A DNA stretch of 39,673 bases from IMG/VR virus record IMGVR_UViG_3300045988_108579, positions 1-39,673 of that record; one strand, written 5' to 3'. The notes under the pieces were generated by a model. That model was not told where the DNA came from and made no database searches. It saw only the letters and a list, made by a program, of their open reading frames with translations. This document shows, piece by piece, positions 7,254-39,574 of the stretch. The stretch's first letter is position 1; every line of letters begins with the position of its first letter. A program made the position numbers and the translations under genes. The stretch comes from a virus.

Positions 7254-8860
7254 CGCTATCGGAAACGCCGCCGGAGGGGCTTCTGGACTGGATCAAGGCG
7301 CAGAAGCTCGACTGGCGGGACTATTTCATCTACCGCGCCGGCTGGCAGACGGATCCGCTGACGGGCCTGCGGCACAAGTGCGTGGACGCCGTATGCTCGG
7401 CGTGCGGGGAGACGGTGAAGCTATCGTATGTGCCGGGCGGAGGATGCGGACATGCGGGATACAGCACGCCGTTCGGATTTCTGCATCCGGTGAGCGGGGA
7501 CGCGCTCATAAGCGGCAACAAGCTCGCCTGCCCGATGTGCGGCGAGGCGGTGGAGGCAAAGCATGTGTCAAACGCGCAGCGGCTTGCGCGCTATGTCTGG
7601 CCGATGACGGCGGAGGCGCAGGGCGGGAAGCTGCTGCTCTATCTCTGGCGGGTGTGCCGGGACGTGGAGAAGAGCGGGCGCGTCACATGGCGTGTTGACC
7701 CGTGGGAGGTATACGCCTTCGGCGGGACGAGCGCCGCGCGCTGGCGGCACTGGCAGAAATTCATGTCCTCGACTTACATTCTCCCCGGCTGGGAGGAGCG
7801 GAAGCGGTTTGCCGACACGATGTTCGACGTGGATCTCGTGTACTGCCCGGAGGGGCTGGCGAACATCTACGCGCAGACGGAGTGCGCCAACTGCAAGCTC
7901 GAGACCTATATGGGAGTGGAGACGGAATACCGCTTCCCGGTCGCATGGATGAAGATATGGCAGCGGCACAGGAACGCCGAGGCGCTGACGGCGCCGAACG
8001 CCAAAAAGCTCGCGGCGGCTCTCATCGCCGAGGGGAAGCGCTCTCCGGTGTATAACAAAAACTGGTCGGAGAAGACCGACGTGCTGCACGGCGTGGACTG
8101 GAAAAGGAAAAAGCCGCACGAGCTGCTGCGGATGACGAAGGAGGAGCTCAACTACTTCAACGGCGCGAAGAACGCGCCGAAGCGCTTGAAGGCGCTGCTG
8201 CTCGCTCGGAAATACGGTGTGGCCTGCCGTCTCGGCGAGGAGGTCACAAAGGTGGCGGAGTGGCAGCAGGAGGACTTTCTGAAGCGCGGGGTGCTGCCGG
8301 GCAAGGCCGAGAGGTATCTTGACAGGCAGGCGGCGCGGTATAAAAACCGGCTATGGCCGGGGTATCTGCTGGACTACTGGACGATGGCCGAAAGGCTCGG
8401 CGAGGATCTCACCGAGCGGGACGTGATGTGGCCGCAGAATCTCAAGCGGGCGCACGATCAGATGCAGGAGCGGCAGAAGGCAGAGGCCGCCGAGAAACGG
8501 CGGGAGGCTTTTCAACAGCGCTATGAGCGCATGAAAAAGTACGCCTTTGAGGACGGGGACATTCTCATTCGACCGTGCGGAACGGAGGAGGAACTCATCG
8601 CCGAGGGCAAGGCGCTGCACCACTGCGTCGCCTCCTACGCCGAGCGGCACGCGCGGGGAGAGCTCACGATCTTCTTTATCCGGCGGAAGGACAAACCGGA
8701 TGAGCCGTGGTATACGCTCAACTTCAACGAGAAGAAGCTCTCGGTGACGGAGAACCGGGGCAAGTGCAACTGTGCGCGCACCGACGAGGTACGAAACTTT
8801 GAAAATACATGGCTGGAGTGGGTGCGCTCCGGCCGGAAACGGAGGACAAGCGCAGCGTGA
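7250..8860 (+). CDS. PcfJ-like protein.
   Basis: 536 aa. The C-terminus LIAEGKALHHCVASYAERHARGELTIFFIRRKDKPDEPWYTLNFNEKKLSVTENRGKCN matches the PcfJ signature (EG..L.HCV..Y......G...I..IR ... T.E ... RG..N). The N-terminus has CxxC pairs. Confidence 0.65.
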   Translation: MTLSETPPEGLLDWIKAQKLDWRDYFIYRAGWQTDPLTGLRHKCVDAVCSACGETVKLSYVPGGGCGHAGYSTPFGFLHPVSGDALISGNKLACPMCGEAVEAKHVSNAQRLARYVWPMTAEAQGGKLLLYLWRVCRDVEKSGRVTWRVDPWEVYAFGGTSAARWRHWQKFMSSTYILPGWEERKRFADTMFDVDLVYCPEGLANIYAQTECANCKLETYMGVETEYRFPVAWMKIWQRHRNAEALTAPNAKKLAAALIAEGKRSPVYNKNWSEKTDVLHGVDWKRKKPHELLRMTKEELNYFNGAKNAPKRLKALLLARKYGVACRLGEEVTKVAEWQQEDFLKRGVLPGKAERYLDRQAARYKNRLWPGYLLDYWTMAERLGEDLTERDVMWPQNLKRAHDQMQERQKAEAAEKRREAFQQRYERMKKYAFEDGDILIRPCGTEEELIAEGKALHHCVASYAERHARGELTIFFIRRKDKPDEPWYTLNFNEKKLSVTENRGKCNCARTDEVRNFENTWLEWVRSGRKRRTSAA

Positions 8861-10440: not shown

Positions 10441-10938
10441 ATGGATTTCAAAAATGCACTCGAGGCAATGAAACACGGGGAGGCGGTGAAGCTGCCGTCG
10501 TGGGGCGGCTTCTGGCGATGGGATGCCGAGAAGCGGACCATCATCATGCACACCAAAGAAGGAAAGGAAATGGACATCCGCGAGACGCAGGTCGTGGAAT
10601 ACACGCTGCTGAACGTCCTGTCGGACGAGTGGGTGATTGCCGGGCTTGAAAACTGCCCGGCGCTCGGCGGCATAGCGCGCTTCTCCTTCAGCGAGGCGAT
10701 AAAGTATGTCAAACGCGGGATGAAAGTGCGCCGGGCCGGGTGGAACGGGCGAAATCAGCACATCGAATTGGCGGTAGACATCTGTTACTACAGCGCCACG
10801 GACGCGCAGCCGCGCAATGCGTACCATGAGGACATAGGCAGCAAGGCCATCGTGTTCTGCGGGACGCGGGGAGAGCAGATCGGCTGGCTGGCGAGTCAGG
10901 CGGACATGCTGGCGGAAGACTGGATGTTCTGCGAATGA
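10441..10938 (+). CDS. Tandem DUF2829-domain protein (Tad2-like anti-Thoeris sponge family).
   Basis: Strong RBS AAGGAGG. The C-terminal half FSEAIKYVKRGMKVRRAGWNGRNQHIEL...IGWLASQADMLAEDWMF closely matches the DUF2829 consensus (F.eAl..lk.GkkV.R.gWng...i.l ... W.asq.DlLAeDW). The N-terminal half MDFKNALEAMKHGEAVKLPSWGGFW...LLNVLSDEWVI is a second, more divergent copy. Confidence 0.75.
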   Translation: MDFKNALEAMKHGEAVKLPSWGGFWRWDAEKRTIIMHTKEGKEMDIRETQVVEYTLLNVLSDEWVIAGLENCPALGGIARFSFSEAIKYVKRGMKVRRAGWNGRNQHIELAVDICYYSATDAQPRNAYHEDIGSKAIVFCGTRGEQIGWLASQADMLAEDWMFCE

Positions 10939-11373: not shown

Positions 11374-11556
11374 TTAACCGCATTGTGCATCATCCTTGTG
11401 TGAGAGAAAAAAAGCGATCAGCCGCACAAGGTATTCCGGCGGCTTGGAGACCTCGCTCTCCCAGTTTTCGATGCTACGTTTCGGGATTCCGAGCAGCTCG
11501 GCGAAAGCGCGCTGCGTAAGTCCGGTAGACTCACGCAGCGCCTTGATCTCACTCAT
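11374..11556 (-). CDS. Small XRE-family HTH regulator (Aca-like or antitoxin-like).
   Basis: Start at internal ATG 11556. MSEIKALRESTGLTQRAFAELLGIPKRSIENWESEVSKPPEYLVRLIAFFL. It overlaps the upstream gene by 8 nt. Confidence 0.75.
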   Translation of the reverse strand: MSEIKALRESTGLTQRAFAELLGIPKRSIENWESEVSKPPEYLVRLIAFFLSHKDDAQCG

Positions 11557-11824
11557 TGGCGGCTTCCACCTTGTTCCAGTACACCGGGCGCGGAACGTCC
11601 TTTCCCCAGTCAAAAAGAACGGAATAGAGCTCGCCGTCGTCACCGCGGCAGATCGGCGAATAACCGTCGAAAAGATCGTCGCTCAGGCTGTCGGCGTAAT
11701 TCTCGCCGCGGGTGCGGCGGATGTCGTCAAGGACGGTTTTGTCGTACTGCAACGGTGCGTCGCTCCATTTGTACCCCTTGCCTTTCAGATCAAGCTCGCG
11801 GTTGTCGATGATTTCAAATTTCAT
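11549..11824 (-). CDS. Acidic 91-aa protein of unknown function. Anti-defence or toxin candidate.
   Basis: MKFEIIDNRELDLKGKGYKWSDAPLQYDKTVLDDIRR...DDGELYSVLFDWGKDVPRPVYW. By my count it has 20 D/E against 13 K/R. It is the first gene of a promoter-operator-gene-HTH-terminator unit. Confidence 0.65.
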   Translation of the reverse strand: MKFEIIDNRELDLKGKGYKWSDAPLQYDKTVLDDIRRTRGENYADSLSDDLFDGYSPICRGDDGELYSVLFDWGKDVPRPVYWNKVEAANE

Positions 11825-12979: not shown

Positions 12980-13251
12980 AGTTCCGGCCGATGAAGGGCT
13001 GCGGGGCGGTCTGGCAGCAGCGAATTGTTCACGCCTTTTTGGAGGCGTACCGGAATCTGCCGCCGCCGGCGCAGGACGAGATCCGGAAAACGATAGAGAG
13101 TACAGCGACAGGGCAGGCCGAGGGGCGTGCCCTCATCGCCGTGCTGTTGAAAAACAAATCGCCGGAGACGGCGAGCCGCGAGACGAGCGTGCCGGTGGGC
13201 CGAATCTACGAATTGAGACGGAATTTCTACGCGGCGTACTGGCCGATGTGA
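12976..13251 (+). CDS. Small HTH protein upstream of terS. Candidate late or packaging regulator.
   Basis: TTG start 7 nt after AGGAGG (TTGA overlap). ATG 12991 is an alternative. The C-terminus ETASRETSVPVGRIYELRRNFY looks like a sigma region-4-type HTH. Confidence 0.35.
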   Translation: MKFRPMKGCGAVWQQRIVHAFLEAYRNLPPPAQDEIRKTIESTATGQAEGRALIAVLLKNKSPETASRETSVPVGRIYELRRNFYAAYWPM

Positions 13252-13263
13252 GGAGGGAGAAGC

Positions 13264-13707
13264 ATGGCAAGAGACATCACACCGCGGCAGAAGAAGTTCG
13301 TGCAGGAGTATTTGCGCTCCGGCGACGCCACGGACGCCGCCATCGCCGCGGGGTACAGCGCGAAGAGCGCGGCCTCGACGGCCTCGAAGACGCTCAAAAT
13401 GCCGGGCGTCATTGAATACCGGCGGGAGCTGGAGAAGAAGCTCTTTGACGAGATGGGCATATCGAAGGCGTGGATCGGGCGGCGGCTGGTGGAGATCGTG
13501 GAGCGGTGCACACAGAAGACGCCGGTGCTGGAGTGGAACCCGGAGACGCGGCAGAAGGAGCCGAACGGATTCTGGGAATTTGACGCGAACGGCGCGATCC
13601 GCGCGCTGCATGAACTTGCCGAGCACATGGACTTTGCCGAGGGTGAGCAGAGCGCCGCCGAGAGCATTGAGGACTGGCTCGCAAGGCAGGAGGGATCGAA
13701 GTTGTGA
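13264..13707 (+). CDS. terS: Terminase small subunit.
   Basis: MARDITPRQKKFVQEYLRSGDATDAAIAAGYSAKSAASTASKTLKMPGVIEYRRE is the classic Terminase_2-type N-terminal HTH. It lies directly upstream of terL. Confidence 0.85.
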   Translation: MARDITPRQKKFVQEYLRSGDATDAAIAAGYSAKSAASTASKTLKMPGVIEYRRELEKKLFDEMGISKAWIGRRLVEIVERCTQKTPVLEWNPETRQKEPNGFWEFDANGAIRALHELAEHMDFAEGEQSAAESIEDWLARQEGSKL

Positions 13708-15332
13708 ATCCGTGCGTAGCAATGGACTACATCGAGAGCTGCCTCAAGATCAAGACGAAGAGCGGGACGGTCGTGCCGTTCCGGATGAACGACGCGCAGC
13801 GAAAGCTCTACGCCGTGGCGAAGCGGCAGCAGGACGACGGAAAGCCCGTCCGGCTCATCATTCTCAAGGCCCGGCAGCTCGGCTTTTCCACGCTGACGGA
13901 GGGCCTTATCTTCCACGCCTGCGCGACGCGACGGAACACGAACGCCCTCATTGTTGCGCACCGCGAGGACGCGACGGCAAACCTTTTCCGGATGAGCAAG
14001 CTGTTCTATGACGAGCTGCCAGCGCCGGTGAAGCCGATGCTGCGCGCCTCGAACGCGCAGGAGCTGGTATTCGAGAACCCGTCCAAGCTCCGCAGCGAGC
14101 GGGAGGCAAGGCCGGGGCTGCGCTCGCGGATCCGCTGCGCCACGGCGGGAGGGCGCGGCATCGGACGAAGCGACACGCTGCAATGCGTGCATCTCTCGGA
14201 GTACGCCTTCTGGCCGGACGGCGCGGACGGGAAAGCCTCCACGCTCGCCGGTATCTTACAGGCCGTGCCGAGTCTGCCGGGGACGATGGTCGTCATCGAG
14301 AGCACGGCGAACGGCTTTGAGGACTTCAAGGAGCGCTGGGACGCCGCCGTTGCCGGGGAGAACGACTTTGAGCCGGTGTTCTTCGCGTGGTTTGAAAATC
14401 CGGACTACTCGATGCCGGTCGTGCCCGGAACGGAATGGACGCCGGAGGAGCGGGATCTCAAGGCAGCGTATCAGCTGACGGACGGGCAGCTCCAATGGCG
14501 GCGCTGGTGCATTGCGAACAACTGCGGCGGGAGCCTGGACATGTTCCGGCAGGAGTATCCCGCCTCTCCCGGCGAGGCGTTTCTCCACAGCGGCACGGGC
14601 GTATTCGACAACGAGCAGATCGTGCTCCGGCTGGAGCGGCTGCCCGGACCCGCCGGGCGCGGGGAGTTTACAAACGGCGAGTGGACGGAGAGCGAGACCG
14701 GCGCGATCACGCTCTACGAGCTGCCGGAGGAGGGCGTTCCGTATGTGCTCGGCGGCGACACGGCGGGCGAGGGCTCGGACTACTTCACGGCCATCGTCAT
14801 CGACAACGTGACGGGGAGGATCGCTGCCAAGCTCCGGCAGAAATACAGCGAGCCGGAATACGTCCGGCAGATCTATGCACTCGGGAGGTTCTACAACGAT
14901 GCGCTTGTCGCCATAGAGACGAACTTCTCCACCTACCCGGTGATGAAGCTGCAGGAGATGGAGTATCCGAATCAGTACAGCCGCGAGCGGGAGGACACCT
15001 ACACGCGGCAGATGAGGAAGAGCTACGGCTTCCGCACCGACCGGCAGAGCCGCCCGCGGGCCATTGCGAATCTGGTGGAGGTGTTCTCCTCGCATCCGGA
15101 GTGGTTCACCGACCGGGAGCTGCTCGAAGAAATGCTGACGTTCTGCTACAACGAGGATCACCGGCCGGAGGCGCTCGCCGGGAAGCACGACGACCTTGTG
15201 ATGGGCGCGGCGATTACCTACGCGGTGCGGCATCAGCAGCGGATGACGGTGCTCACGGAGCCGGAAAAGCCGCGGGAGAAGCTCATCGACCAGATGAAGC
15301 GGCAGAAGAGAACCAGGAGAGTATGGGGATAA
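13704..15332 (+). CDS. terL: Terminase large subunit.
   Basis: 542 aa. It has an ATPase-like segment (RLIILKARQLGFSTL), DE-type motifs and a C-terminal nuclease-like part (HDDLVMGAAITY). GTGA overlap with terS. ATG 13722 is an alternative start. Confidence 0.85.
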   Translation: MNPCVAMDYIESCLKIKTKSGTVVPFRMNDAQRKLYAVAKRQQDDGKPVRLIILKARQLGFSTLTEGLIFHACATRRNTNALIVAHREDATANLFRMSKLFYDELPAPVKPMLRASNAQELVFENPSKLRSEREARPGLRSRIRCATAGGRGIGRSDTLQCVHLSEYAFWPDGADGKASTLAGILQAVPSLPGTMVVIESTANGFEDFKERWDAAVAGENDFEPVFFAWFENPDYSMPVVPGTEWTPEERDLKAAYQLTDGQLQWRRWCIANNCGGSLDMFRQEYPASPGEAFLHSGTGVFDNEQIVLRLERLPGPAGRGEFTNGEWTESETGAITLYELPEEGVPYVLGGDTAGEGSDYFTAIVIDNVTGRIAAKLRQKYSEPEYVRQIYALGRFYNDALVAIETNFSTYPVMKLQEMEYPNQYSREREDTYTRQMRKSYGFRTDRQSRPRAIANLVEVFSSHPEWFTDRELLEEMLTFCYNEDHRPEALAGKHDDLVMGAAITYAVRHQQRMTVLTEPEKPREKLIDQMKRQKRTRRVWG

Positions 15333-15335
15333 ACG

Positions 15336-15369
15336 AAAACAGGACAGGGGGAAAGCCTGTCCTGTTTTT
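15336..15369 (+). terminator. Rho-independent terminator after terL.
   Basis: 13-bp stem AAAACAGGACAGG/CCTGTCCTGTTTT, followed by TTTTTG. Confidence 0.8.
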
Positions 15370-15380
15370 GCGTTTGGGTA

Positions 15381-15424
15381 TTGACAATGTACCCCACATT
15401 TGATATATTAAACGTGGGGTACAT
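15381..15424 (+). promoter_or_regulatory. Consensus promoter embraced by an 11-bp perfect inverted repeat.
   Basis: TTGACA (15381..15386), 17 nt, TATATT (15404..15409). The inverted repeat is ATGTACCCCAC (15387..15397) and GTGGGGTACAT (15414..15424). Confidence 0.7.
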
Positions 15425-15440
15425 AAATAGGAGGTGACAC

Positions 15441-15629
15441 ATGGGAAACCCTAACGCGAAAGGCCGCCCGACCCCTCTGAATCCGAAAGATAAGTTCTTC
15501 AAAATGCGTACCGACGAGAAAATGCTTTTGCTTTTGGAGGAAAATAGCCGCATGACCGGCAACACAAAAGCCGACGAGGTGCGAATCGCTATTGAAGAGC
15601 GGAACAAGCGGCTGAAAGAAGCAAAATAA
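15441..15629 (+). CDS. Small ribbon-helix-helix-like (CopG/MobC-type) protein.
   Basis: RBS GGAGGTG. KGRPTPLNPKDKFFKMRTDEKMLLLLEENSRMTGNTKADEVRIAIEE follows the beta-strand then two-helix RHH pattern. The region is lower in GC. Confidence 0.5.
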   Translation: MGNPNAKGRPTPLNPKDKFFKMRTDEKMLLLLEENSRMTGNTKADEVRIAIEERNKRLKEAK

Positions 15630-15760
15630 AAATTCCCTGCGCTGCTCAGTTTGGCGACAGACAGCACAGGGAACCCGTTACCGACCTTTTGCAAGGAGGG
15701 TGTAAATATATTACTATGCCCTCTTTCAAAGGTCAAGGACAATTTGAAGGAGGTTTTTCT

Positions 15761-16015
15761 ATGCCCAAAAGCACAAACCCGGTAAAAGTCATCCGCGAGA
15801 AATGCCTTGACTGCTGCTGCGGCAGCACGAAGCAGGTTGAGCTTTGCCCCTGCGAGAGCAACTGCCCGCTGTGGCCGTTCCGTTTCGGGAAGAATCCCTT
15901 TAGGAAAAAGCCCAAACGGACGGAAGAGCAGATGGCGCGGCTCACGGCTGCAACAAGAAAGAAACGCGGCGCTATAAACGAGACGGAGACGAACGAAACG
16001 GACGGGGTAAGGTAA
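15761..16015 (+). CDS. Cys-rich small protein (zinc-binding?).
   Basis: ATG 15761 follows GAAGGAGG. MPKSTNPVKVIREKCLDCCCGSTKQVELCPCESNCPLWPFRFGKNPF, then a basic tail. Confidence 0.55.
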   Translation: MPKSTNPVKVIREKCLDCCCGSTKQVELCPCESNCPLWPFRFGKNPFRKKPKRTEEQMARLTAATRKKRGAINETETNETDGVR

Positions 16016-16132
16016 GTATACTCCCCAACAACGCGAAATCAAAAAATCCTCGCTGCGATAGAGAAAAAATACGAAAAACGCGAAACGGGAGGCGGTGATG
16101 CGTTCCGTTTCGCGGAAGAAAGGAACAAGGGC

Positions 16133-16240
16133 ATGAATAACGATAGAGAAACGAAGATCGAGGAGATCGTGCGGATGCTGCGAAACATGGATATACGGGC
16201 GCTGCGGCGGGGGTATTTCTTCCTGCTGGGGGTGATCTGA
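16133..16240 (+). CDS. Mini-protein, 35 aa. Paralog 2 of the IEEIVRML family.
   Basis: MNNDRETKIEEIVRMLRNMDIRALRRGYFFLLGVI. AAAGGAA RBS. It shares a 32-nt identical block with paralog 1. Confidence 0.55.
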   Translation: MNNDRETKIEEIVRMLRNMDIRALRRGYFFLLGVI

Positions 16241-16258
16241 CGGAAAGGAGACAGGGAC

Positions 16259-16411
16259 ATGAAAAGCAATACGGCAAACGCCGAGCGGGAAAAGACCATC
16301 GAGGAGATCGTGCGGATGCTGGCCAACACGGACGAGGAGGCTCTGCGGTTTATCCGGAGCTTTCTGCGGGCAGCACGGGAGCAGCACAAACGTGATAATA
16401 AATGCGGGTAA
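16259..16411 (+). CDS. Mini-protein, 50 aa. Paralog 3 of the IEEIVRML family.
   Basis: AAAGGAG RBS. MKSNTANAEREKTIEEIVRMLANTDEEALRFIRSFLRAAREQHKRDNKCG. The 24-nt core 16298..16321 is identical to 855..878 and 16157..16180. Confidence 0.55.
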   Translation: MKSNTANAEREKTIEEIVRMLANTDEEALRFIRSFLRAAREQHKRDNKCG

Positions 16412-16431
16412 TATTTCACAGAAATTTTTTG

Positions 16432-16466
16432 ACCGGAGCGGGAAACCGCTCCGGTTTTGCTTTTTT
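16432..16466 (+). terminator. Rho-independent terminator closing the moron unit.
   Basis: 10-bp stem ACCGGAGCGG-gaaa-CCGCTCCGGT, followed by TTTGCTTTTTT. Confidence 0.8.
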
Positions 16467-16620
16467 CAAAGCTGAAACCGCCTGTCGTATCAACGGGTTT
16501 GACGATTCGTGAAAAGTTCACAAAAAAGTCGCCGAGCACGGACAGATATTTCGGGTTAGCCTTTAATCAGCAAGAAAAATACATCGCGGCGACGGCAGCA
16601 CAGTCGCAGAAAGGACCCAC

Positions 16621-17412
16621 ATGGACGAGAACATGGAAGCCGTAACTCCGGAGGAGGGCTCGGAGGGCGGCGTCGTAACCGCAGAGACCGGCGCTGAAGC
16701 GGAAGAGACCGCAGGCGAAAAGAAGCAGGAGGCCGCCGAACCTGCCAGACAGAGCCGGGAAGAGAACGCCAGATACCAGGCGGCGCGCAAGGCCGGAGAA
16801 TCCGCCGGATTTCGACGGGCCGAGGAGCGCTACCAGAGCGCGCTTGCCAAGCTTGGCTTAAGCGATCCGGACGGCGGCGGGGCGATCGACTCGCTGGACG
16901 TGCTGGAGAGCTACGCCGACAAGGCGCGCGCGGCGCGGCTCAAGAAGGCCGCGGCGGAGAGCGGGCGCACCGTGCAGGATCTGGAGGAGGAAGAGGACGC
17001 AAAAGAGGTCGTCCGCAAACAGAAGCGCGAGCGGGCCGAGCGGGAGAAAGCAGACGCCGAGGCAGAGCGGCAGAAGGACTGGATCGCCCAGGACGCCGCG
17101 GCATTCGTCCGGGAGCACCCGGACGTGGATATTTCCAAGCTCGACGGAAACGCGAAGTTCCGCAGGTTCTGCGGCAGCCGGTACGGGAAGGAGCCGCTGA
17201 GCGAGCTCTATGCCGACTGGCAGGAGCTTGTGGGAGAGGAAGCCGCCGCGAAGGCGGTGGAGAAGGCCGCAAAGAAAGCCGAACGCTCCACGGGAGCGGG
17301 CGGAGGCGGCGTATCTGCCGGGCTGACGGCCGCCCAGCAGAGGGAGCTTGACGAATGGAACCGCGAGTTCCCGCACCTGAAAATGACCGCCAAAGACTTT
17401 TTGGAACGCTGA
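16621..17412 (+). CDS. Capsid scaffolding protein.
   Basis: 263 aa, highly charged Ala/Glu/Lys-rich coiled coil. It lies immediately upstream of the head genes. The segment KFRRFCGSRYGKEPLSELYADW is typical of Firmicutes phage scaffolds. Confidence 0.7.
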   Translation: MDENMEAVTPEEGSEGGVVTAETGAEAEETAGEKKQEAAEPARQSREENARYQAARKAGESAGFRRAEERYQSALAKLGLSDPDGGGAIDSLDVLESYADKARAARLKKAAAESGRTVQDLEEEEDAKEVVRKQKRERAEREKADAEAERQKDWIAQDAAAFVREHPDVDISKLDGNAKFRRFCGSRYGKEPLSELYADWQELVGEEAAAKAVEKAAKKAERSTGAGGGGVSAGLTAAQQRELDEWNREFPHLKMTAKDFLER

Positions 17413-17425
17413 AAGGAGAAGAATC

Positions 17426-18097
17426 ATGCATCCTGTACAGAATGCGGACGGCGGCAGCGTACTGCAGACCGCCCGCAACTATCCCATCGACGCGGCGACC
17501 GTGATCGACGCGGGCGCCGTGGTGAAGCTCTCCGGCGGCAAGGTCGTTCTGGCCGCCGCTGCGGAGACTGGAGGTATCCTCGGCATTGCCGCGGAGTTTC
17601 ACTCCGGCACGGAGGACGCGCTCAATCTGCGCGCGAACGGCAAGTGGATCCTCGTATGCGACAACCCGACGCTCATCTTTGAGTGCGCCGCGCCGACGAT
17701 CAAGGCCGCCTCCGGAAGCGCCACGACCATCGTGCCGGAGACCGGCGACGTGGACGCGGCCGCCGCGGACGACGCTTTCAACAACGCGGTCCTTGTGCTC
17801 AAAAGCAAGGCTGCGTCCAGCACGAACACCGACGCTGTCGGCACGCAGATCGTCGTTACCGATTATGCCAAGACCGGCACGGTGATGACCAAGGCCAGCG
17901 GCGGCGCGCCGAGCGCGGGCGACGTGTACGAGGTCTATCCCGTGATCGGCGCTGCCATCGGCGGCGTTGCGAGTCTCGGCGACAAGCGCCTCGGCATCAC
18001 GCTCAAGACCGTGGGCGCGACGAAGCTGCGCTGCATCGGCCACGACTACGAGCGCGGCACCATTAAGCTCATGGCGATCGGCCATGCGCTGACCTGA
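17426..18097 (+). CDS. Head-associated beta-rich protein. Decoration or cement-like (DUF2190-like) candidate.
   Basis: Strong RBS. 223 aa, rich in Ala/Gly/Val/Thr. IDAGAVVKLSGGKVVLAAAAETGGILGIAAE resembles DUF2190 proteins. It lies between scaffold and major capsid. Confidence 0.4.
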   Translation: MHPVQNADGGSVLQTARNYPIDAATVIDAGAVVKLSGGKVVLAAAAETGGILGIAAEFHSGTEDALNLRANGKWILVCDNPTLIFECAAPTIKAASGSATTIVPETGDVDAAAADDAFNNAVLVLKSKAASSTNTDAVGTQIVVTDYAKTGTVMTKASGGAPSAGDVYEVYPVIGAAIGGVASLGDKRLGITLKTVGATKLRCIGHDYERGTIKLMAIGHALT

Positions 18098-18113
18098 GAA
18101 GGAGGAAAAGGAA

Positions 18114-19073
18114 ATGCCAGCTAATATTGGAAAATGGACGACCGACAACTACAAGTTTGTCGGCAAGGCGTTCGACTTTTCGTATGCCGACCGCCTCAAT
18201 AAGCTCTCGCCCGTCGTGGGCGAGGTGAACGCCAAGAGCATCGACTACGAGCTGACCGGCTCCGGCGGCTACGGCGAAGCGCCGCTTTACGACGGAAACA
18301 ACCTGAACACCGGCTCGCTGCGCCGCGGCTTCAAGACCATCATCACGCCGGAGGAATTCTCACTCTCCATCCCCGTCGGCTACAAGGAAGCGAAGATCGA
18401 CAAGATGGGCGAGACGAAGAAGGTCGGCTCGAAGCTCGGTGACAGCATGGCGCTCACGGTGTATCTGCATGTGCTGCGCATGTTCGCTAATGCCTGGAAC
18501 ACCGACGGCCGCCACAACGGCGGCGACGGCGTGAGCTGGGCCAACGCCGCGCACCCTGTCGCCTCCCGCGGCTCGAAGGGCCGCCGCTTTGAAGCGGACA
18601 GCGAGAGCGGGACCTACTCGAACATCACAACGGACGCGTTCTCCGTTGCGGCCATCACCGCGGCGCAGGCGCGCGCCAACCGCTTCGTGACGCCGGACGG
18701 TCTGCCGTTCCTGTGCGACTTCGACACCGTTCTCATCTCCCCCGAGCTGGAGGAGAAGGCGAAGAAGATGTTCGGCGAGAACTCCCGCCTGATGCCGATG
18801 CAGAATCCGGACGACGAAACAAACGCTGCGAACCCCATCTACGGCATGCGCTACATCGTCATGGGCGGCGGCGCGGACGGCTTCACGAGCAAGCAGTGGG
18901 CGGTGTGCGACCGCCGGCTGATGAAGGAGCTCGTGAACATCGTCTACAACACGCGCCCGACGGTGCTGCAGTCCCCGCAGGACAACCCGCTGATCGATCT
19001 TTACACCGCGTATGCCGACTTCGGCGTGGGCTGGGGCGACGCAAGACAGATCATCTTCGGCGATCCGGGCTAA
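18114..19073 (+). CDS. Major capsid protein (HK97-fold type).
   Basis: 319 aa with a strong RBS. Position after the scaffold and overall composition are typical of Mu gpT-like or HK97-like capsid proteins. Confidence 0.8.
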   Translation: MPANIGKWTTDNYKFVGKAFDFSYADRLNKLSPVVGEVNAKSIDYELTGSGGYGEAPLYDGNNLNTGSLRRGFKTIITPEEFSLSIPVGYKEAKIDKMGETKKVGSKLGDSMALTVYLHVLRMFANAWNTDGRHNGGDGVSWANAAHPVASRGSKGRRFEADSESGTYSNITTDAFSVAAITAAQARANRFVTPDGLPFLCDFDTVLISPELEEKAKKMFGENSRLMPMQNPDDETNAANPIYGMRYIVMGGGADGFTSKQWAVCDRRLMKELVNIVYNTRPTVLQSPQDNPLIDLYTAYADFGVGWGDARQIIFGDPG

Positions 19074-19105
19074 TGCCGTAAAGCAAACCCTCGACGGGCT
19101 TTGAA

Positions 19106-24529: not shown

Positions 24530-26374
24530 ATGCGAAAGAAGAAACAGAGCAATGAGCGGGTGATCGTCGGGTATGACTACTCCACCCGCGAGCTGCGCGA
24601 GGAGACGGCGGACGCGCTGTTCCGCCGGGCGAAGAACGCCCGCACCGCCGTGGAGATCGAGTGGGAGAAGTGCAACGACTACTACAACGGCATCCACGAC
24701 GCGACGAAGGAGATGGTCGAGTACTGCCGCGCGAACGATGTTCCGTGGATCCCGGCGAACATGCCGGATCCGTACATTCTTGTGGAGACGCAGATCAACC
24801 CGAACGTGCCGGAGCCGGAGTTTCGCGGGCGAGACGACGATCTCGACAGCGCCAAGGCGAAGCAGCGCGAGTTTGCCGTGCGCTACATCATCGAGAACAA
24901 CCGCCTTTCCGACATGAATACGCGCAACGAGCGCCGGCTTCTGAAGCTCGGCGACGCGTTCTGGAAGGCGTACTGGGACCGGGACATGCGCTGCGGCGTG
25001 AACGAGGGCGACATCCGCATCCGGGACATACCGACGGAGGCAATATTCCCCGACCCGGCCATCCGCGACGGCGGATTGCAGGACGGGCAGTATGTGGACT
25101 ATGTGTACACGATGCACAAGGTGAAGTTCTGCCAGGTGTTCCGCCGCGAGCTGGAGGAGCTGGGACTGACGGCGGACGACATTCTCACGGAGGACTACGT
25201 TTCCCGCACCGGCGTATTCGATCTCACGACGGCCATCAACGATCTGGACGACACGGTGCAGGTGCTCGAGCACTGGTTCCGGCAGCCGTGCGACACGGAG
25301 GAGGACGGCGAGAGAGTGCCCGCCGGAGCGGTGGCATGCTCGATCCTCGCGGGAGGGCGCGAGCTGCGGTACATCCCGAACTACTGGAAGCGCACATGCA
25401 AGCAGAACAGTCTCTTCCCGTTCGTGCATTACTGGCGTATTCAGGACGAGAACCGCTTCTGGAACAAAAGCGAGCTCACGCCGATCATCGAGCTTGTGGA
25501 CGCCGCCGACCGGAAGCTCGCTATGAGCATTCTGAACGACACGTTCCTTGCAAACGATATCATCCTCGTGGAGGACAGCGCGCTTGCCGACGGCGAGGAG
25601 TTCACCAACGAGCCGGGCGCGGTGATCCATCTCAAGCAGAACCGCATGGGCGGCGTGCAGCGGCTCGGCGGACTGCAGAGCATAGCGAACGGCGCGATGG
25701 GCGTGGAGTTCTTCAAGAACCAGATCGAGCGCGCCAGCCGAAACTACGACATCAATCAAGGCAGGGAAACGACCAAGGTCACGACGGCGACCGGCCTTGC
25801 CATGATGCGGCAGGACGCGCAGAGCCAGGCGGACATCAAGGGCGCGGACCGCGACGCCGGGTTCGAGCGGCTGTATGAGCTGCTCGACTGGCTGGCGCTC
25901 GAGTTCTTCGACGACGATAGGATGCTGTTCATCGGCGCGGACGAGATGAAGGACCGCGCGCCGCAGGCAATGCCGTTCAATGCCGACAGCTTCACGGCGG
26001 TCATGCCGAAGGTGCTGGACGGGGCCGGAAACGTTGTGCGCGAGGAGTGGCAGTACTTCCCGCGCGTGGACGTGACGATCACGGCGGGCGACAGCATCGC
26101 CCACGGCAAGGCGCAGACGCTGCAGGCGCTGCAGGCGCTCACGCAGAGCCAGATCACGGCGGAGAACTGGAAGCTGTTTGCCGCGCAGCTTGAGCTCATC
26201 GATCTGCCGGGCAAGCAGGAGATCATCAACGAATGGCAACAGAGGTTCGCCGTACCGGCTATGCCGGAATCCGCCGGAGGCGGCGGAGCGGGAGCGCTCG
26301 GCGAGGCGGCCGCCGGCGGAGCGATACCGGGGGCGCAGACGCTGCCGCTGCTGGGAGGTGCGCCGACGGCATGA
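24530..26374 (+). CDS. Portal protein.
   Basis: 614 aa. Size, acidic composition and layout are typical of portal proteins. It is followed by internal-protein genes. Confidence 0.7.
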   Translation: MRKKKQSNERVIVGYDYSTRELREETADALFRRAKNARTAVEIEWEKCNDYYNGIHDATKEMVEYCRANDVPWIPANMPDPYILVETQINPNVPEPEFRGRDDDLDSAKAKQREFAVRYIIENNRLSDMNTRNERRLLKLGDAFWKAYWDRDMRCGVNEGDIRIRDIPTEAIFPDPAIRDGGLQDGQYVDYVYTMHKVKFCQVFRRELEELGLTADDILTEDYVSRTGVFDLTTAINDLDDTVQVLEHWFRQPCDTEEDGERVPAGAVACSILAGGRELRYIPNYWKRTCKQNSLFPFVHYWRIQDENRFWNKSELTPIIELVDAADRKLAMSILNDTFLANDIILVEDSALADGEEFTNEPGAVIHLKQNRMGGVQRLGGLQSIANGAMGVEFFKNQIERASRNYDINQGRETTKVTTATGLAMMRQDAQSQADIKGADRDAGFERLYELLDWLALEFFDDDRMLFIGADEMKDRAPQAMPFNADSFTAVMPKVLDGAGNVVREEWQYFPRVDVTITAGDSIAHGKAQTLQALQALTQSQITAENWKLFAAQLELIDLPGKQEIINEWQQRFAVPAMPESAGGGGAGALGEAAAGGAIPGAQTLPLLGGAPTA

Positions 26375-26481: not shown

Positions 26482-27877
26482 CTTTTGGGATTGGGTGAAC
26501 AAGCAGGCCAACAAGCAGGCCGCGACCGGGGACGAGCTGCTGTACGCCGATGCGCTGAAAAACCAGGAGGCGAGAAACGCTGCGAATAACCAGTACGCCG
26601 CGGCAGCCGCGGCGGCGAAAAGTGGGAGCGCGAACAGCTCGTCTCTGCAGGGGACCATCGATCCCGACCGGACGGGCGCGGCGGCGCCGCCGCGAAAAGG
26701 GCTCTATGACCAGACGGGCATGAACGCGACGGCGGCGAACGCGGCAAGCGGAGCGATGACCGGCGCTCTGGCCGGAGCGGGCGTACTGCCGAACCAGAAC
26801 GGAGCGCAGCAGCCGACCACGACACCGACGCAGCCGGGCACGTCCGGCGGCGGCAAGGTGACGTACATCGACCCCAACGGCGACGCGCAGAAGGGCACGA
26901 CGGAAGGAACGGCGGAGGAAACGCCGGGCGAGCCGCAGCGGACGTATCTGGACGAGCTGCGTGACCAGTACCAGAAGATGTACGACGATGCGGTGAAGGC
27001 CAACAACGACGCGGCAAAGGCCGCCGCCGAGCGGGCGATCGCGCAGGCGGAGAAGGGCGTCGGCGAGCTCGGAGACCAGTACGGAAGTCTCAACAAGCAG
27101 CTCTACCGCGACTACATGGAATCCCTGCGCGTGCTGCCGCAGGAGATGGCCGCGAGAGGCTACAGCGGCGGCATGAGCGAATCGGCCCGGCTGGGGCTGG
27201 ATACGGCCTACGGCGAGCGGCTGAACGAGAACGAGGCCGCGCGCATTGCCGCCATCATGCAGCTGCGGCAGCAGGGCGCGGACGCCGAGTATCAGGCGAA
27301 CGCCGCGCGGGATCAGGCAAACGCGCAGGCGCAGCAGAATCTCTACGCGAACATGATGAATCTCATTCTTCAGCAGCAGCAGGACGCCGCGACGAAGGCG
27401 CAGAACATGGCGCAGTACGGCGATTTCTCCGGCTATCTCGGGCTCGGCTACACGCGCAGCGAGATCGACCAGATGCAGAAGGCGTGGATCGCGGCGAATC
27501 CGGAGCTTGCGAAGGCGCTGGGGTATGTCAAGACGCCGGAGCCTGTGTACAGCTCTTACAGCGGCGGAGGCGGGAAAAACAACACGCCGAGCGCTGAGCA
27601 GCAGGCGAACGGAAGAGATCTTCTGAGCGAAGCGATACAGCTGAAAAACGGCGGGACACCGTACAGCCAGATCGCCAAGGCACTCGACGAGGAAGCTGCC
27701 GCGGGAACGATCACGACGGCACAGGCGGAGGCGGCAAAGCGAGCGGCAATAAGCAGCGGGCTGGATAACGCCTATGCGTCGATGAAGAAAAACACAACGC
27801 AAAAAGGCCCCGTCTCCGGAGGGAGACTGATCACTGAGGGCGACTTTTACAGCCAAATTCTCGGAGGTAGAAAATGA
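26474..27877 (+). CDS. Putative internal virion or ejection protein.
   Basis: 467 aa. Low-complexity Ala/Gln/Gly-rich sequence with coiled-coil stretches. It lies between the portal and the giant protein and is translationally coupled on both sides. Confidence 0.45.
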   Translation: MANFWDWVNKQANKQAATGDELLYADALKNQEARNAANNQYAAAAAAAKSGSANSSSLQGTIDPDRTGAAAPPRKGLYDQTGMNATAANAASGAMTGALAGAGVLPNQNGAQQPTTTPTQPGTSGGGKVTYIDPNGDAQKGTTEGTAEETPGEPQRTYLDELRDQYQKMYDDAVKANNDAAKAAAERAIAQAEKGVGELGDQYGSLNKQLYRDYMESLRVLPQEMAARGYSGGMSESARLGLDTAYGERLNENEAARIAAIMQLRQQGADAEYQANAARDQANAQAQQNLYANMMNLILQQQQDAATKAQNMAQYGDFSGYLGLGYTRSEIDQMQKAWIAANPELAKALGYVKTPEPVYSSYSGGGGKNNTPSAEQQANGRDLLSEAIQLKNGGTPYSQIAKALDEEAAAGTITTAQAEAAKRAAISSGLDNAYASMKKNTTQKGPVSGGRLITEGDFYSQILGGRK

Positions 27878-30800
27878 GCCTTACGGAAAGAATCTACGGA
27901 AAAGAGACAGCCGGAAAACCGGCTGTCTCTTCGGACACTCAGAAGAACCTGTATACTATGGCGGCGAACAAAAAGCCGTCGCTCGCAAACCGCATTGCGC
28001 AGAACGGCGGGCAGCCGACGCTCTACGCTGACGCCGCAGCAAAGCAGAAGCCGTCGCTTGCAAGCCGCATTGAGGCCAACGGCGGGACGCCATACGCCGA
28101 CGCGGCGGCGCAGATGAAGAGCGGGAATGCGGCGAAGGGCACGAGCGTCGTTTTCAACAGCGTGTACGGCAAGGCGGACGACCGGGCGAGCTCGGCCGGA
28201 TCCGGAAAGTATGCCGATATTCTCAAAGCGAGCGACTATACCGAGCTTTCCAAAAGCGGCGAGAGCAAGAGAAAGCTCTTCGGCGACGCCCGGTATGATT
28301 ACATCAACAACATCGGGAACTTCCGTGCGCAGTCCGACGTGCAGCAGGCGCAGGGGCGCGGGCAGGACTACGGGAAATACGCCTTCATGACCGATGATGA
28401 GATCGGCGTATACAACTACCTCTACGCCAAGCAGGGCAAGAAGGCGGCGAACGCCTATCTGAGCGATCTTGAGCCGGAGCTGGACAAGCAGTGGTACACC
28501 GGAACGAACCGGGCAACGACGGAGGCGCTCGGAAAGAACGCGGCGACGCGGACGCTGGCAAGCGCCATGACCGTTGCGGCGCAGCCTACCCGGACGATCA
28601 CGAGCATGATCGCCATGGCGGACGATGCGGTGCGCACGGCGAAGGGGCAGGAGATCAACCCCTATTCCAAGTGGCGGCAGGCGAGCAACATCACGCAGGA
28701 TCTCCGTGCCGACACCTCGCAGCACATCGAGGAAACGAATCCGGGGATGGGCGGCAAGGTCGGGAGCTTCGTATACAACACCGCGATGAGCGCCGCGGAC
28801 AGCGCGATGAACGCGCTTGTCGCCAAGGGCATCGGCGAGGCGGTGGGGCTTACCGGCGACACGCTGATGAAGGCGACGAACATTCTCGGCTCGGCGCTGA
28901 TGAGCTCGGAGGTGGCTTCTCTGTCCATCGCCGAGAGCAAGGAAAAGGGATACTCCAACGCCGGAGCGCTGGTGCTCGGTCTGACGCGCGGCGCGATCGA
29001 GTACGCTTCGGAGGCGGTCGGCGGCGAATGGGTCATCCGAAAGATCAAGGCAAACCCGCTGAGCTTCGTGAAGAGCATGGCGCTCACGATGATCCCCGAG
29101 GGCATGGAGGAGGTCATGTCGGACGCGGCGAACGGCGTGGTAAACCTTGCGATCGACGCGGCGTTCGGCACGGAAGAGAGCGGGATCCCGAAGATGCTCG
29201 AATACTACCGGACCAGCGGCACGGATTGGCAGAAGAAGCACGCGGAGCTTGCGACCGTGCTTGCCGTTCTCGGACAAGAGGGGCTTTCGTTCCTTGGCGG
29301 CGCGCTGGCAACACTGGGGTCGAGCAGCGTGCAGTACAGCACGAACCGCGCGAACATCAACCAGACAGCCGAGCGGCTGGACACTACACCGAAGAACGTT
29401 GTGCAGATGATGCAGGACGCGCAGACGGAAAACCCCGGCGTTATATACGCGCTGGCCGAGCTGACCGACGCGGAGAACGCCGACGATCTCCGGCAGAAGA
29501 TCGGCACGAAGGAAGATATGAAGCGCGCGGCGGAGTATCTGACGCAGCAGATGGGGGCAGGCGGACGCTCCGGCGCGCAGGAAGGTAATTATACTTCCGG
29601 GGCGCAAAACGCGCCTGTGAGTGCGCAGAGGGCGCAGAACGAAGGAATCAGCACGACGCCTACAGCGGCGATCAACATTCAGGAGGGAATGAACAATGGA
29701 CAGAGTACTTATCAGGGACGAGAAAACGGGTCTTATGATCTCCGTGCCGGCGGACAAGCTGCCGCAGAAGGAGGAGCGCAAGCTCTCGCCGGAGGCCGAG
29801 CGGAAATTCCGGGAGGCGTGGGAGCGGACGCGCAGGCGGATCTACGGAAAGTAACTCCGGCGCAGCTCGGCATCCGAAACGGCGGCACGGAGGCCGTGAC
29901 CGTAGTGGACGCGCGGAAGATCGGCGGGGACGCGGCGAGAGCGTATAATCTTCTCGCGGCGAACAATATAGAGCCGGTCGCGGTGCGCGGAGCCATTCAG
30001 GTGAACAACGGCTACGCGAACGCCTATACCGAGAGCGGGAGGGTGTTCTTCCGCGTGGACGCCGTGGACAGCCGCGGCAACGCCATCAGCCCGGAGGCGC
30101 TGGTGCGGCACGAGCTGTTCCACAACTACATCTCCGAGGAGGTTTTGCAGGCGTCGGACGAGGTGATCCGCGAGAGCATGACCGCCGAGGAATACGACGC
30201 GATGTATGAGAGCTACCGCGACGCCTACGCGAGCATCTACGATTTTGACAACATGAGCGTGGACGAGATCGAGCGGCTGGTCACCGAGGAGATCGCGGCG
30301 GACGCTTACGCGGGGCTGAACTGGTTCTCCGGCGACGCGCCGGTGCAGGAGGCCGTGCGCGCCGAGACAGAAAGAAACGCCCCGGCCCGGAGGGAAGAGG
30401 CGCAGCAGGAGACGACGGGACCGCCGGAAGGACAGGGCGCTGTATACATTGAAAAGTCAAAGTCGGCGTTGGAATCAAATCCAAACAGCAACGCCTATGT
30501 TCTGGCGAGCAGCATACCGCTTCTGCAAAATTCGGAAGTCGTAAAGCACCTTACGGGGGAAGAATTGAATGATGCGTCGAAACCGTTGGATCAACAGATT
30601 TCTGATTTGTTCGCGTCTGTGGGGAACGTCGCGCACCGCGAAGGATTCGGCAAAGTGGAGCTGAACCGCTACGGAGTTGACGGAATTATAAACCACAAAC
30701 CGAACCGGTCAAAGGTGCTGGGCGTTGCAGCGATAAAGGAAGTAATCGAAAAAGGCTACATCATCAAGACGAATCTGAATTGGAAAGGACGAGGGTACGA

Positions 30801-38455: not shown

Positions 38456-39574
38456 TTAGGCGTTTTTTGACCCTTTTTTACTAACGGATTTACTAACGGA
38501 GGCGGAGTAGAACTTGCGCATCTTCTTGGCAGAGCGTGAAAGGTCTTTTTCTGAAAGACGGAGATAATGATCGTGAACGGTTTTCCAGTTGCTCCACCCG
38601 CCGACGCGCATGGTCTCCTCTTCCGGCCAACCGAGATGGTAGGCGAGGGAAGCGAAGCTGCTGCGGAGCCCTTGGAAGCCGACCTCTGGGAGATCGTGTG
38701 CGGCGCAGATGCGGTTGATCCGACGACGGGTGTTATCGTTGCATGGACACATACTTCCGGTATGATCTTGGAGCAGCTCCAGCAGGCGGGGAATCACGAT
38801 GGGGACAACGCGCTGCGAGAGGGCGGACTTGTTCTCCTCGCGGTGGATCCATGAGCCATCGTCGGCGTAGACCGTGGAGCCGGAAACGCGGATCGTCTCG
38901 GACTTGCGGTCTATGTCCTCCATGCGCAAGGCGAAGATCTCCGAGCGGCGAAGGGAATGGAGAGCGAGCAGAGCGGGAAGTTCGACAGGGGTGCCGCGGA
39001 TGAGATCGACAAAGACGAGGATCTGGTCATAATCGAGCCACGGAGTAACCGTTTTCGGTATCGCGCCGATGTCCACCGGATCAAAGGGAATCTTGAATTC
39101 TTTGAACGCTGCGGCAACGAGGCTTATCTCATTGTGCAGCGTCTTTTTTGCTACGCGCTTTGATTCGGCATCGATAGCCTGCGGCCAGTTGATGGAGCGG
39201 ATATCTTTGTCCATATAAGCTGGGAACGCATTTCGGCGGATACCATAGTAGCCGCGAAGCGTGGAGGGAGAGCGGACGAGCCGACGCTCGATGTATTTGT
39301 CTAACAGCTCACCCAACGTCTGGCGGGGGAGCTTGCTCTCCTGCTCAATGAACCCGGCGCGGATGGCGAGGGCTTTGGTGCGGCATGCTTCCTCCGTGGG
39401 CTCGGTGACGTTTACGCCCTCGCGGCGGAGCTGCACTGTCCAGCTGCCGGAGGGGAGCTGCCGGGGAGCGGGGATCTTGAGCTTCTTTTCCTTTTCACGG
39501 AGCTGCTTCTTTCCGCACCAGTTGCAGTACAGCGAGTTTTCCGGGATATCGCGCGAGCAGTTGCAGCACTTCAT
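38456..39574 (-). CDS. int: Tyrosine integrase with an N-terminal zinc ribbon.
   Basis: 372 aa. N-terminus MKCCNCSRDIPENSLYCNWCGKKQ. The catalytic region has LHSLRRSEIFAL (Arg), LRSSFASL and VHDHYLRL (His/Tyr). It is adjacent to the attP-like region. The start codon lies inside the terminal repeat. Confidence 0.9.
   Translation of the reverse strand: MKCCNCSRDIPENSLYCNWCGKKQLREKEKKLKIPAPRQLPSGSWTVQLRREGVNVTEPTEEACRTKALAIRAGFIEQESKLPRQTLGELLDKYIERRLVRSPSTLRGYYGIRRNAFPAYMDKDIRSINWPQAIDAESKRVAKKTLHNEISLVAAAFKEFKIPFDPVDIGAIPKTVTPWLDYDQILVFVDLIRGTPVELPALLALHSLRRSEIFALRMEDIDRKSETIRVSGSTVYADDGSWIHREENKSALSQRVVPIVIPRLLELLQDHTGSMCPCNDNTRRRINRICAAHDLPEVGFQGLRSSFASLAYHLGWPEEETMRVGGWSNWKTVHDHYLRLSEKDLSRSAKKMRKFYSASVSKSVSKKGSKNA
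38477..38497 (+). repeat. Arm-type integrase-binding-site candidates (pair 2).
   Basis: TTTACTAAC at 38477..38485 and 38489..38497, with the same 12-nt phasing. They lie inside the last codons of the integrase gene. Confidence 0.5.

Follow-up and report, generated by a model that had tools for sequence, protein, structure and literature searches.

A moron with a putative P22 immI-type regulatory design and an unusual Cys-rich cargo behind terL in a gut Clostridia phage

The stretch of DNA considered here (the window) is the whole 39,673-nt (39.7-kb) sequence of the virus record IMGVR_UViG_3300045988_108579, which comes from a temperate phage of Oscillospiraceae, of about 40 kb and with a P22-type portal. 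Between its terL gene and the next head gene, p263, lies a cassette of four small genes that encode a ribbon-helix-helix (RHH) protein, a Cys-rich protein and two mini-proteins (Table 1). A comparison with related phages has revealed that this cassette, at about positions 15333-16411, is a horizontally acquired and dispensable moron of foreign composition inserted in the terL/head-gene slot, in the sense of Hendrix and Juhala summarised in PMC3594210. The explanation that we favour, with moderate confidence, is a self-regulated moron in which an RHH autorepressor and an antisense RNA control a Cys4 payload located in an 'antirepressor slot', and the cassette as a whole appears to follow, in phages of gut Clostridia and with an unusual cargo, the regulatory design known from the immI region (ant moron) of P22. 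An earlier note on this DNA had described an autonomous, independently regulated accessory unit, and its two terminators, promoter, inverted repeat and four open reading frames (ORFs) were all found where it had placed them; the autonomy is supported by the presence or absence of the unit among near-identical phages, by its foreign composition and by the co-variation of repressor and operator.

Table 1. Features of the cassette and of its surroundings in the window.
Feature	Position	Strand	Description
XRE-type regulator	11374-11643	minus	
terS	13264-13707		Pfam and PHROG matches
terL	13704-15332		Pfam and PHROG matches
T1, intrinsic terminator	15336-15373	plus	13-bp perfect stem (15336-15348/15356-15368) and T-run
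P1, promoter	15381-15409	plus	TTGACA-17-TATATT, sigma-A/sigma-70-type, TG-extended -10
Operator	15387-15424		38-bp near-palindrome centred on the -10 hexamer
RHH repressor, allele type A	15441-15629	plus	Arc/CopG-like, 62 aa
Candidate antisense small RNA	15622-15701	minus	about 80 nt, 5' end near 15701, ends at the RHH stop codon
Candidate antisense-RNA promoter	15708-15736	minus	TTGACC-17-TAATAT, found in promoter scans
Payload 1, Cys-rich protein	15761-16015	plus	84 aa
Stem-loop between payload and mini-ORFs	16079-16114	plus	-26.3 kcal/mol, z = -6.1
Mini-protein 1	16133-16240	plus	35 aa, IEEIVRML motif
Mini-protein 2	16259-16411	plus	50 aa (39 aa in some alleles)
T2, terminator	16431-16466	plus	-23.0 kcal/mol, z = -5.7
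p263	16621-17412		263-aa head gene after the cassette
Portal	24530-26374		Pfam P22_portal, starts 9.2 kb past the end of terL
Integrase	38456-39574	minus	

The content of the slot has been surveyed by tblastn of the window proteins on 78 related loci, and 24 informative loci with a terL at least 92% identical were considered as close relatives. The slot was empty in 13 of these 24 loci (L005, L007-L010, L012-L015, L017, L018, L051 and L052), with terL located about 315 bp from p263, so that genes adjacent in close relatives are separated in the window by the cassette, which adds about 1.1 kb. A cassette with the RHH type of the window (type A) was found in L001 and L016, and a cassette with a second type (type B, whose RHH protein is 38% identical to A, E = 3e-8) in L006, L021, L034 and L065. 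Other cargos were a minus-strand Arc-like RHH gene with a 64-aa ORF, a gene for a Phage_pRha protein and the same two mini-ORFs (L011 and L038), a set of DUF4160, DUF2442 and HTH_3 genes (L019), and a TacA-like RHH gene with two unknown genes (L020 and L042). Since empty sites, this cassette or four other cargos alternate among close relatives, the cassette agrees with how a moron is defined, and the terL/head-gene slot is a high-turnover hotspot in which at least five cargos have been exchanged. The alignments place the insertion junctions at about 16405-16412 on the right and within the last 20 nt or so of terL on the left. The recombination junction between the Rha-type cargo and the window-type cassette falls within the Cys gene, in its 3' tail at about 15970, which indicates that the cassette is itself a mosaic.

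The composition of the cassette is also deviant. Its GC content is 0.51 versus 0.60 for the whole window, with values of 0.49-0.55 over positions 15250-16750 and of 0.62-0.69 in the flanks, and the GC content at third codon positions is 0.60-0.75 in the four cassette genes versus 0.80-0.88 in the neighbouring genes. The lower GC content pointed out in the earlier note is therefore correct, but it does not stop at about 16130 as proposed there, because the dip also covers the mini-ORFs and the conserved intergenic region, as far as about 16620.

At the sequence level the cassette has its own promoter and terminator, although only one of the two terminators seems to be truly its own. T1 begins 3 nt after the terL stop codon (-23.8 kcal/mol, z = -6.5), is present in all cassette-bearing loci and is absent from the empty sites, and it appears to have come in with the cassette. 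In L011 it also terminates the minus-strand Arc-like gene, and the T and A runs that flank it on both sides suggest that it could act bidirectionally. A near-identical copy of T2 is found directly after terL in the empty-site relatives, and T2 is consequently the terminator that terL had ancestrally, and the cassette now uses it for its own 3' end. This corrects the earlier note, which had taken the terminator at 15336..15369 as that of terL and the one at 16432..16466 as the other boundary of the unit; it is the alignments with empty sites that decide this point.

Like classical lambdoid morons such as the HK97 gene 15 moron (PMC3594210), the cassette is additional DNA that separates two genes found side by side in relatives, is equipped with a promoter and a terminator of its own and deviates in GC content. 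It differs from them in being multi-gene, in having its own repressor-operator pair and a probable RNA regulator, and in borrowing its downstream terminator from the recipient genome. Morons are often exclusion or defence genes (PMC3594210), and this frequency, together with the classical moron architecture insulated from the late operon and with the toxin-antitoxin- or defence-like cargos found in the slot of relatives (DUF4160/DUF2442/HTH and TacA-like RHH), would be in agreement with a lysogenic-conversion or defence moron, in which the Cys protein and/or the mini-proteins are expressed by the prophage and block superinfecting phages by superinfection exclusion or abortive infection, the RHH protein only setting the level. 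We consider this alternative improbable: PADLOC gave no match for any of the four proteins, the family of the Cys protein is typical of early lytic operons beside replication genes and not of prophage-expressed loci, and the same RHH module drives antirepressor-type genes elsewhere.

The promoter of the cassette, P1, matches 11 of the 12 consensus positions, and its allelic forms match all 12 (TTGACA-17-TATAAT). A promoter scan of the region detected three promoter-like sites versus 0.7 expected. The operator overlaps the core of P1, with outer arms consisting of ATGTACCCCACAT at 15387-15399 and its complement at 15412-15424 (one mismatch in 13), one placed in the -35/-10 spacer and the other just downstream of the -10; the core arms are GTACCCCAC (15389-15397) and GTGGGGTAC (15414-15422). 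Both ATGTACCCCACAT arms are the only matches with one mismatch or none in the whole window.

The assignment of the first gene to the RHH repressors is based on its match to PHROG 876 'transcriptional repressor' (E = 6e-6), on the weak matches of its family profile, all of them to RHH-clan families, and on the type B allele, which passes the Pfam RHH_1 threshold (25.3 bits versus 20.5). The N-terminal segment KFFKMRTDE is invariant in 29 homologues of the type A protein and is presumed to be its DNA-reading segment. An alignment of seven cassette copies has shown that types A and B are exchanged as a block that begins with the base following the -35 hexamer and ends at the RHH stop codon, with near-identical flanks, as is clear when L006 and L016 are compared. 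Each of three RHH types has its own palindrome at the same position relative to the -35 and -10 elements: TTGACA-a-TGTACCCCACAT..TATATT..ACGTGGGGTACA for type A in the window, TTGACA-tat-GTATCCACAT..TATAAT..ATGTGGATAC for type B in L006 and L021, and TTGACT-t-TTGAGCGTGC..TATAAT..GTGTGCTCAA for type C, a 57-aa gene of L173. All 14 RHH genes in the fetched loci and the window were correctly paired, with the cognate palindrome 16-52 nt upstream and none elsewhere. In addition, type A homologues (71% and 90% identity) located in the unrelated phage contexts L170-L172 and L173 retain the operator GTACCC(C/A)AC...GTGGGGTAC, and the P1 architecture is kept in L170 and L173. In view of this perfect co-variation the RHH protein very probably represses its own promoter, and autorepression of P1 via the palindrome is strongly supported by the comparison, in line with the earlier proposal that the RHH protein binds the inverted repeat. 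The three natural repressor-operator alleles, of identical architecture, offer small regulators that are orthogonal and ready for use. Two direct copies of ACATGTACCCATGTA, which resemble the window operator half-site ATGTACCCCACAT, were also observed in the divergent Arc-like/Rha promoter region of L011 (2617-2703) and in the equivalent region of L038.

The type A repressor resembles the Arc, Mnt and CopG autorepressors in its short length, in having a presumed N-terminal strand segment followed by two helices, in being encoded by the first gene of the operon, in its palindromic operator overlapping the promoter core and in the existence of specificity alleles. It differs from them in that it remains under the family thresholds and in that the operator arms flank the -10 element, instead of forming a compact 21-bp site. 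An autoregulated RHH gene in the first position of an operon would also be expected in a type II toxin-antitoxin system, in which the RHH protein would act as the antitoxin and the toxin would be the Cys-rich protein or a mini-protein, and the weak matches to antitoxin-type RHH families (PSK_trans_fac, and RelB-like for allele B) point in the same direction. The tight gene pair and the recognisable toxin that define these systems were not found: the genes neither overlap nor abut, being separated by a structured spacer of 131 nt, the 62-aa RHH protein lacks a C-terminal toxin-binding extension, its homologues are found together with Ant or Rha genes, thousands of occurrences of the Cys family have no adjacent RHH gene, and searches of the family libraries gave no toxin family match. 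This interpretation was rejected as very improbable.

The spacer between the RHH gene and the payload probably encodes another regulator. A hairpin at 15633-15673 is followed by a U-run, AATTTTTATTTT, on the minus strand only, the plus strand having no T-run, and this hairpin folds better in the window as minus strand (-33.5 kcal/mol, z = -4.0) than as plus strand (-24.8 kcal/mol, z = -2.8). The same was observed for L021 (-31.6, z = -3.7, versus -18.8, z = -0.6) and, in total, for 6 of 7 spacers, with both strands about equal in the second spacer of L173 (L173b). Compensatory changes also occur: between the window and L021, two stem pairs are changed on both sides and three more become G-U pairs that are valid in the minus strand only. 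Five independent spacers (window/L091, L021, L170/L172, L173a and L173b) have unrelated stem sequences, the same orientation and minus-only U-runs. Upstream of the hairpin on the minus strand, a promoter-like sequence is present in all seven spacers (TTGACC followed, after 16-17 nt, by TAATAT, GATAAT, TAGAAT or TAAAAT). In the window it is embedded in a 52-bp palindrome (15683-15734), inside a 97%-conserved leader (15676-15760) that is identical between alleles at 83 of 86 positions, while synonymous sites differ by about 30%. These features give moderate support to a minus-strand RNA of about 80 nt, encoded in the spacer, which would be antisense to the polycistronic mRNA in a sar-like manner. 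Therefore, the four genes listed in the earlier note stand, and the unit probably has a fifth one, for a small RNA with a conserved promoter and terminator. An Rfam scan of 15300-16700 gave nothing significant. A plus-strand payload promoter, TTGCAA-17-TACTAT (15689-15717), was considered less likely than the minus-strand one, as it is restricted to the window-type leader and absent from L170, L172 and L173b, and a Shine-Dalgarno decoy/anti-Shine-Dalgarno switch in the leader was also discarded, its support being limited to the existence of the palindrome.

Modules homologous to the first half of the cassette have been found with other effectors. A Bro-N+ANT antirepressor-type gene is located about 130 nt downstream of the type A RHH homologue in L170-L172, and a Phage_pRha gene occupies the same place in L173. 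Because the same repressor, operator and spacer drive Bro-N+ANT or Rha genes elsewhere, the Cys protein of the window would be placed in an 'antirepressor slot'; the control of antirepressor-type genes by this RHH module also narrows the 'unknown function' that the earlier note had attributed to the system. In L173 (3560-5094) two RHH modules, of type C and then of type A, each with its own operator, are arranged in tandem upstream of the Rha-family gene, and each module carries a copy of the hairpin plus leader after the RHH gene, in an arrangement that resembles the two-repressor layout of immI.

The immI region constitutes the 'ant moron' (mnt, arc, sar RNA and ant) of the Salmonella phage P22 and P22-like phages, and ten content types of the ant-moron region have been described in sixteen genomes (PMC2629481). 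In both cases phages with a P22-type portal have an independently expressed and highly variable insertion in their late or morphogenetic block; the operon starts with the gene of a small RHH repressor whose operator is located within the promoter; an antisense RNA of small size, a candidate one here, lies in the spacer between repressor and effector; and Ant- or Rha-type proteins are driven by the homologous modules of L170-L173 and L011. The differences are also considerable. The host belongs to the Gram-positive-type Clostridia, and the sequences are not similar to those of the P22 genes; the insertion is placed at the junction of terL and the scaffold gene, not upstream of the tailspike gene; the effector is a Cys4 zinc-type protein, whereas antirepressor-family effectors (ANT/KilAC, Bro-N or Rha) occur in L170-L173 and L011/L038; the predicted antisense RNA leaves the ribosome-binding site of the effector uncovered; and two extra mini-proteins are present. 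The window also lacks a divergent Mnt-like second repressor, and a divergent Arc-like gene is found in the L011-type cargo.

The 84-aa payload protein contains the motif C15-x2-C18-x10-C29-x5-C35, with its four cysteines invariant, followed by PFRFGKNP and a basic helical tail (family consensus TNPVKAIREKCLDCCCGS..EVKLC...CPL.PFRFGKNPYR, then a basic helix), and it is probably zinc-binding. A word-indexed search revealed 335 homologues, and a profile search yielded 10,151 clusters at 50% identity (E <= 1e-3), many of them with two tandem copies of the domain. The core of the Cys protein is under strong purifying selection, with 9 synonymous changes versus 1 non-synonymous change and a ratio of non-synonymous to synonymous polymorphism (pN/pS) of 0.03. 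No matches were found in Pfam, NCBIfam, PADLOC or PHROGs; a profile search of the PDB gave chance-level matches to Cys-rich inhibitors (E >= 0.2); the AlphaFold2 (AF2) model, with a predicted local distance difference test score of 74, had no fold match in the PDB and matched uncharacterised viral relatives only; and the long members of the family (200-279 aa) have no informative fused domains. The remote-homology and structure-prediction check suggested in the earlier note has thus provided a huge family of homologues but neither a named family nor a fold. In cultured phages, tblastn detected 'hypothetical protein' genes only, near helicase or replication genes, and in other phages the family belongs to arrays of early, replication or recombination genes that have no RHH gene. 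Taken together, these searches describe a very large, phage-only and uncharacterised family that, judging from gene context, is normally located in early or replication operons.

A small protein with a Cys4 motif and a basic tail, encoded immediately upstream of a conserved pre-head intergenic region in which no -10 element is obvious, could be regarded as a zinc-finger transcription factor for the adjacent head operon, like Ogr of phage P2, and in this case the cassette would be a late-gene regulator and not an accessory unit. This alternative is highly unlikely, since the 13 close relatives without the Cys gene keep the same head operon and upstream region, a Pfam Ogr_Delta match is absent, and elsewhere the family is located among replication genes.

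The presence of the family in the early-gene arrays of many phages, Pseudomonas phages among them, is also relevant to a counter-defence or host-takeover function, in which the Cys protein would inhibit a host immune or nucleic-acid-processing protein and the cassette would provide early expression within the late region. The family is small in size, very diverse and often tandem-duplicated, like many anti-defence proteins, and the same phage encodes a protein with a Tad2-like anti-Thoeris domain. We hold this possibility as doubtful, because the evidence in its favour is limited to context, because there is no similarity to the described anti-defence families and no fused domain, and because it leaves the occupancy of the equivalent slot by Ant and Rha unexplained.

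The two mini-proteins were correctly recognised in the earlier note as members of one family. They are helical paralogues that agree in 16 of 24 residues, their genes share a 67-nt direct repeat whose copies are 75% identical, and both are under purifying selection. Mini-protein 1 (pN/pS = 0.25 versus L021) is kept in the Rha-type cargo of L011, L038 and L105. Mini-protein 2 has 17 homologues, all of them at least 74% identical and all from this phage clade; its pN/pS is 0.30, and the changes in EALRFIRSF are synonymous only. Searches with the mini-proteins in the same family libraries gave chance-level matches only (E 0.04-0.1), and the one match obtained outside the clade, in locus L069 of Anaerotignum, was marginal (E = 0.02, from a small database). 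Both mini-ORFs contain the 24-nt stretch ATCGAGGAGATCGTGCGGATGCTG as a perfect direct repeat (16157-16180 and 16298-16321); as it is imperfect in other alleles, it is probably due to recent gene conversion and not to a DNA site. The stem-loop that separates the payload from the mini-ORFs is invariant in all cassette types, the Rha type included; no U-run follows it on the plus strand, and the A-rich run that precedes it is a T-run on the minus strand.

According to the favoured explanation of a self-regulated moron with its payload in the antirepressor slot, P1 would fire in a repressor-free cell and produce an early burst of payload, in this view a dose-sensitive effector, until the RHH repressor builds up and closes P1, while the antisense RNA would damp the leftover payload expression. 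In the lysogen the unit would remain at a low level set by its autoregulation and would not depend on the late operon. As a best guess, the payload would interfere with a DNA-bound regulator, either as an antirepressor-like protein or as an early effector directed to the host or to a competitor. A more far-reaching version, which we regard as speculative and of low probability, is that the Cys4 proteins are antirepressor-equivalent anti-immunity or anti-defence effectors that act on DNA-bound regulators, that the cassette is a self-limiting pulse generator made up of an Arc-like repressor and a sar-like RNA, and that the mini-proteins are partner modulators; if so, this circuit would be the first of its type beyond the P22 group of enterobacterial phages.

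Several observations weigh against the favoured explanation. The type A RHH protein is below the Pfam threshold (17.2 bits versus 28.3 for PSK_trans_fac), in its AF2 monomer residues 15-24, where the N-terminal strand is expected, are modelled as a helix (followed by helices 26-39 and 42-61), and a Foldseek fold search with this model gave no matches. The operator arms are 25 bp apart from centre to centre, and in the classical Arc operator the arms are closer. With respect to immI, no divergent gene that could correspond to mnt is present in the window cassette, which thus lacks a second repressor able to hold the promoter completely closed in a lysogen. The Cys-rich protein is not similar to Ant or Rha, and large phages, one of them a 156-kb contig, carry it in arrays of early genes with no RHH gene, which is more in keeping with a general early function than with a dedicated antirepressor. 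The sar RNA represses the translation of Ant (PMC13397905), pairing with the ant mRNA, whereas the RNA predicted here misses the ribosome-binding site of the payload (15746-15752), so that it would have to act in another way. Finally, the mini-proteins and the stem-loop at their 5' side are left unaccounted for, and all the regulatory elements of the cassette are deduced at the level of sequence.

Textbook accounts of enterobacterial phages include morons and secondary immunity regions of the immI type, which, to our knowledge, are hardly documented in phages of uncultured gut Clostridia. The window provides an uncultured gut phage in which all the sequence-level characteristics of a moron are found together with natural empty-site controls. 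The architecture is known in principle, and what is worth testing is the link between the nameless Cys family and the antirepressor slot, along with the three repressor-operator alleles; for this very large zinc-type phage family the cassette offers the testable hypothesis of a tightly dosed early effector.

The earlier note also stated that the portal gene is displaced about 9 kb downstream instead of following terL, and this is correct. In distant relatives with a terL about 48-52% identical (L146, L147, L149-L151, L163, L165 and L169), the portal gene starts 12-152 bp past terL and is followed by a scaffold-like gene and the capsid gene. In the lineage of the window the portal lies 4-9 kb downstream of terL, in empty-site genomes as well (8.15-8.6 kb in L092, L093, L100 and L104), and the order is terL, scaffold-like gene and capsid gene, with holin, tail fibre and endolysin genes ahead of the portal. 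As the displacement is also found in empty-site relatives, the relocation of the portal is older and lineage-wide, and was not caused by the cassette, which occupies an old rearrangement junction.

Relatives of the window phage occur in Oscillospiraceae and Oscillibacter genomes and in metagenome-assembled genomes, and a nucleotide search of GenBank phages with the terL-to-capsid region (13200-19100) gave no matches. A ribosome-binding site of the GGAGG type precedes each of the four cassette ORFs. Downstream of T2, the AT-rich intergenic region 16467-16620, upstream of the head genes, is conserved in all relatives, empty sites included; it contains TTGACG followed by a small palindrome, GTGAAAAGTTCAC, with no clear -10 element, and may be a regulated late promoter.

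Other observations concern genes outside the cassette. The alternative cargo of L020 includes a 168-aa gene (7958-8464, minus strand) that is a paralogue of the 91-aa gene located at 11549-11824 (minus strand) in the window, which adjoins the XRE-type regulator, and both have in common the motif DIRRTRGENYA...LYSVLFD. The Tad2-like (Thoeris anti-defence 2-like) protein (PF11195, E = 8e-23) is encoded at 10441-10938, in the early region, beside PcfJ-like and DUF3102 genes. A giant ORF of 2896 aa (27874-36564) contains the Pfam domains LPD38 and LPD3, of the 'large polyvalent protein' kind that characterises proteins which mobile elements deliver. In the locus L069, from an Anaerotignum lactatifermentans prophage, the peptide that matches the mini-proteins (2495-2596, GREKMIQDIVREI...EELRRMRAF) is encoded 3.5 kb upstream of terL and may indicate a wider family of mini-protein-like peptides.

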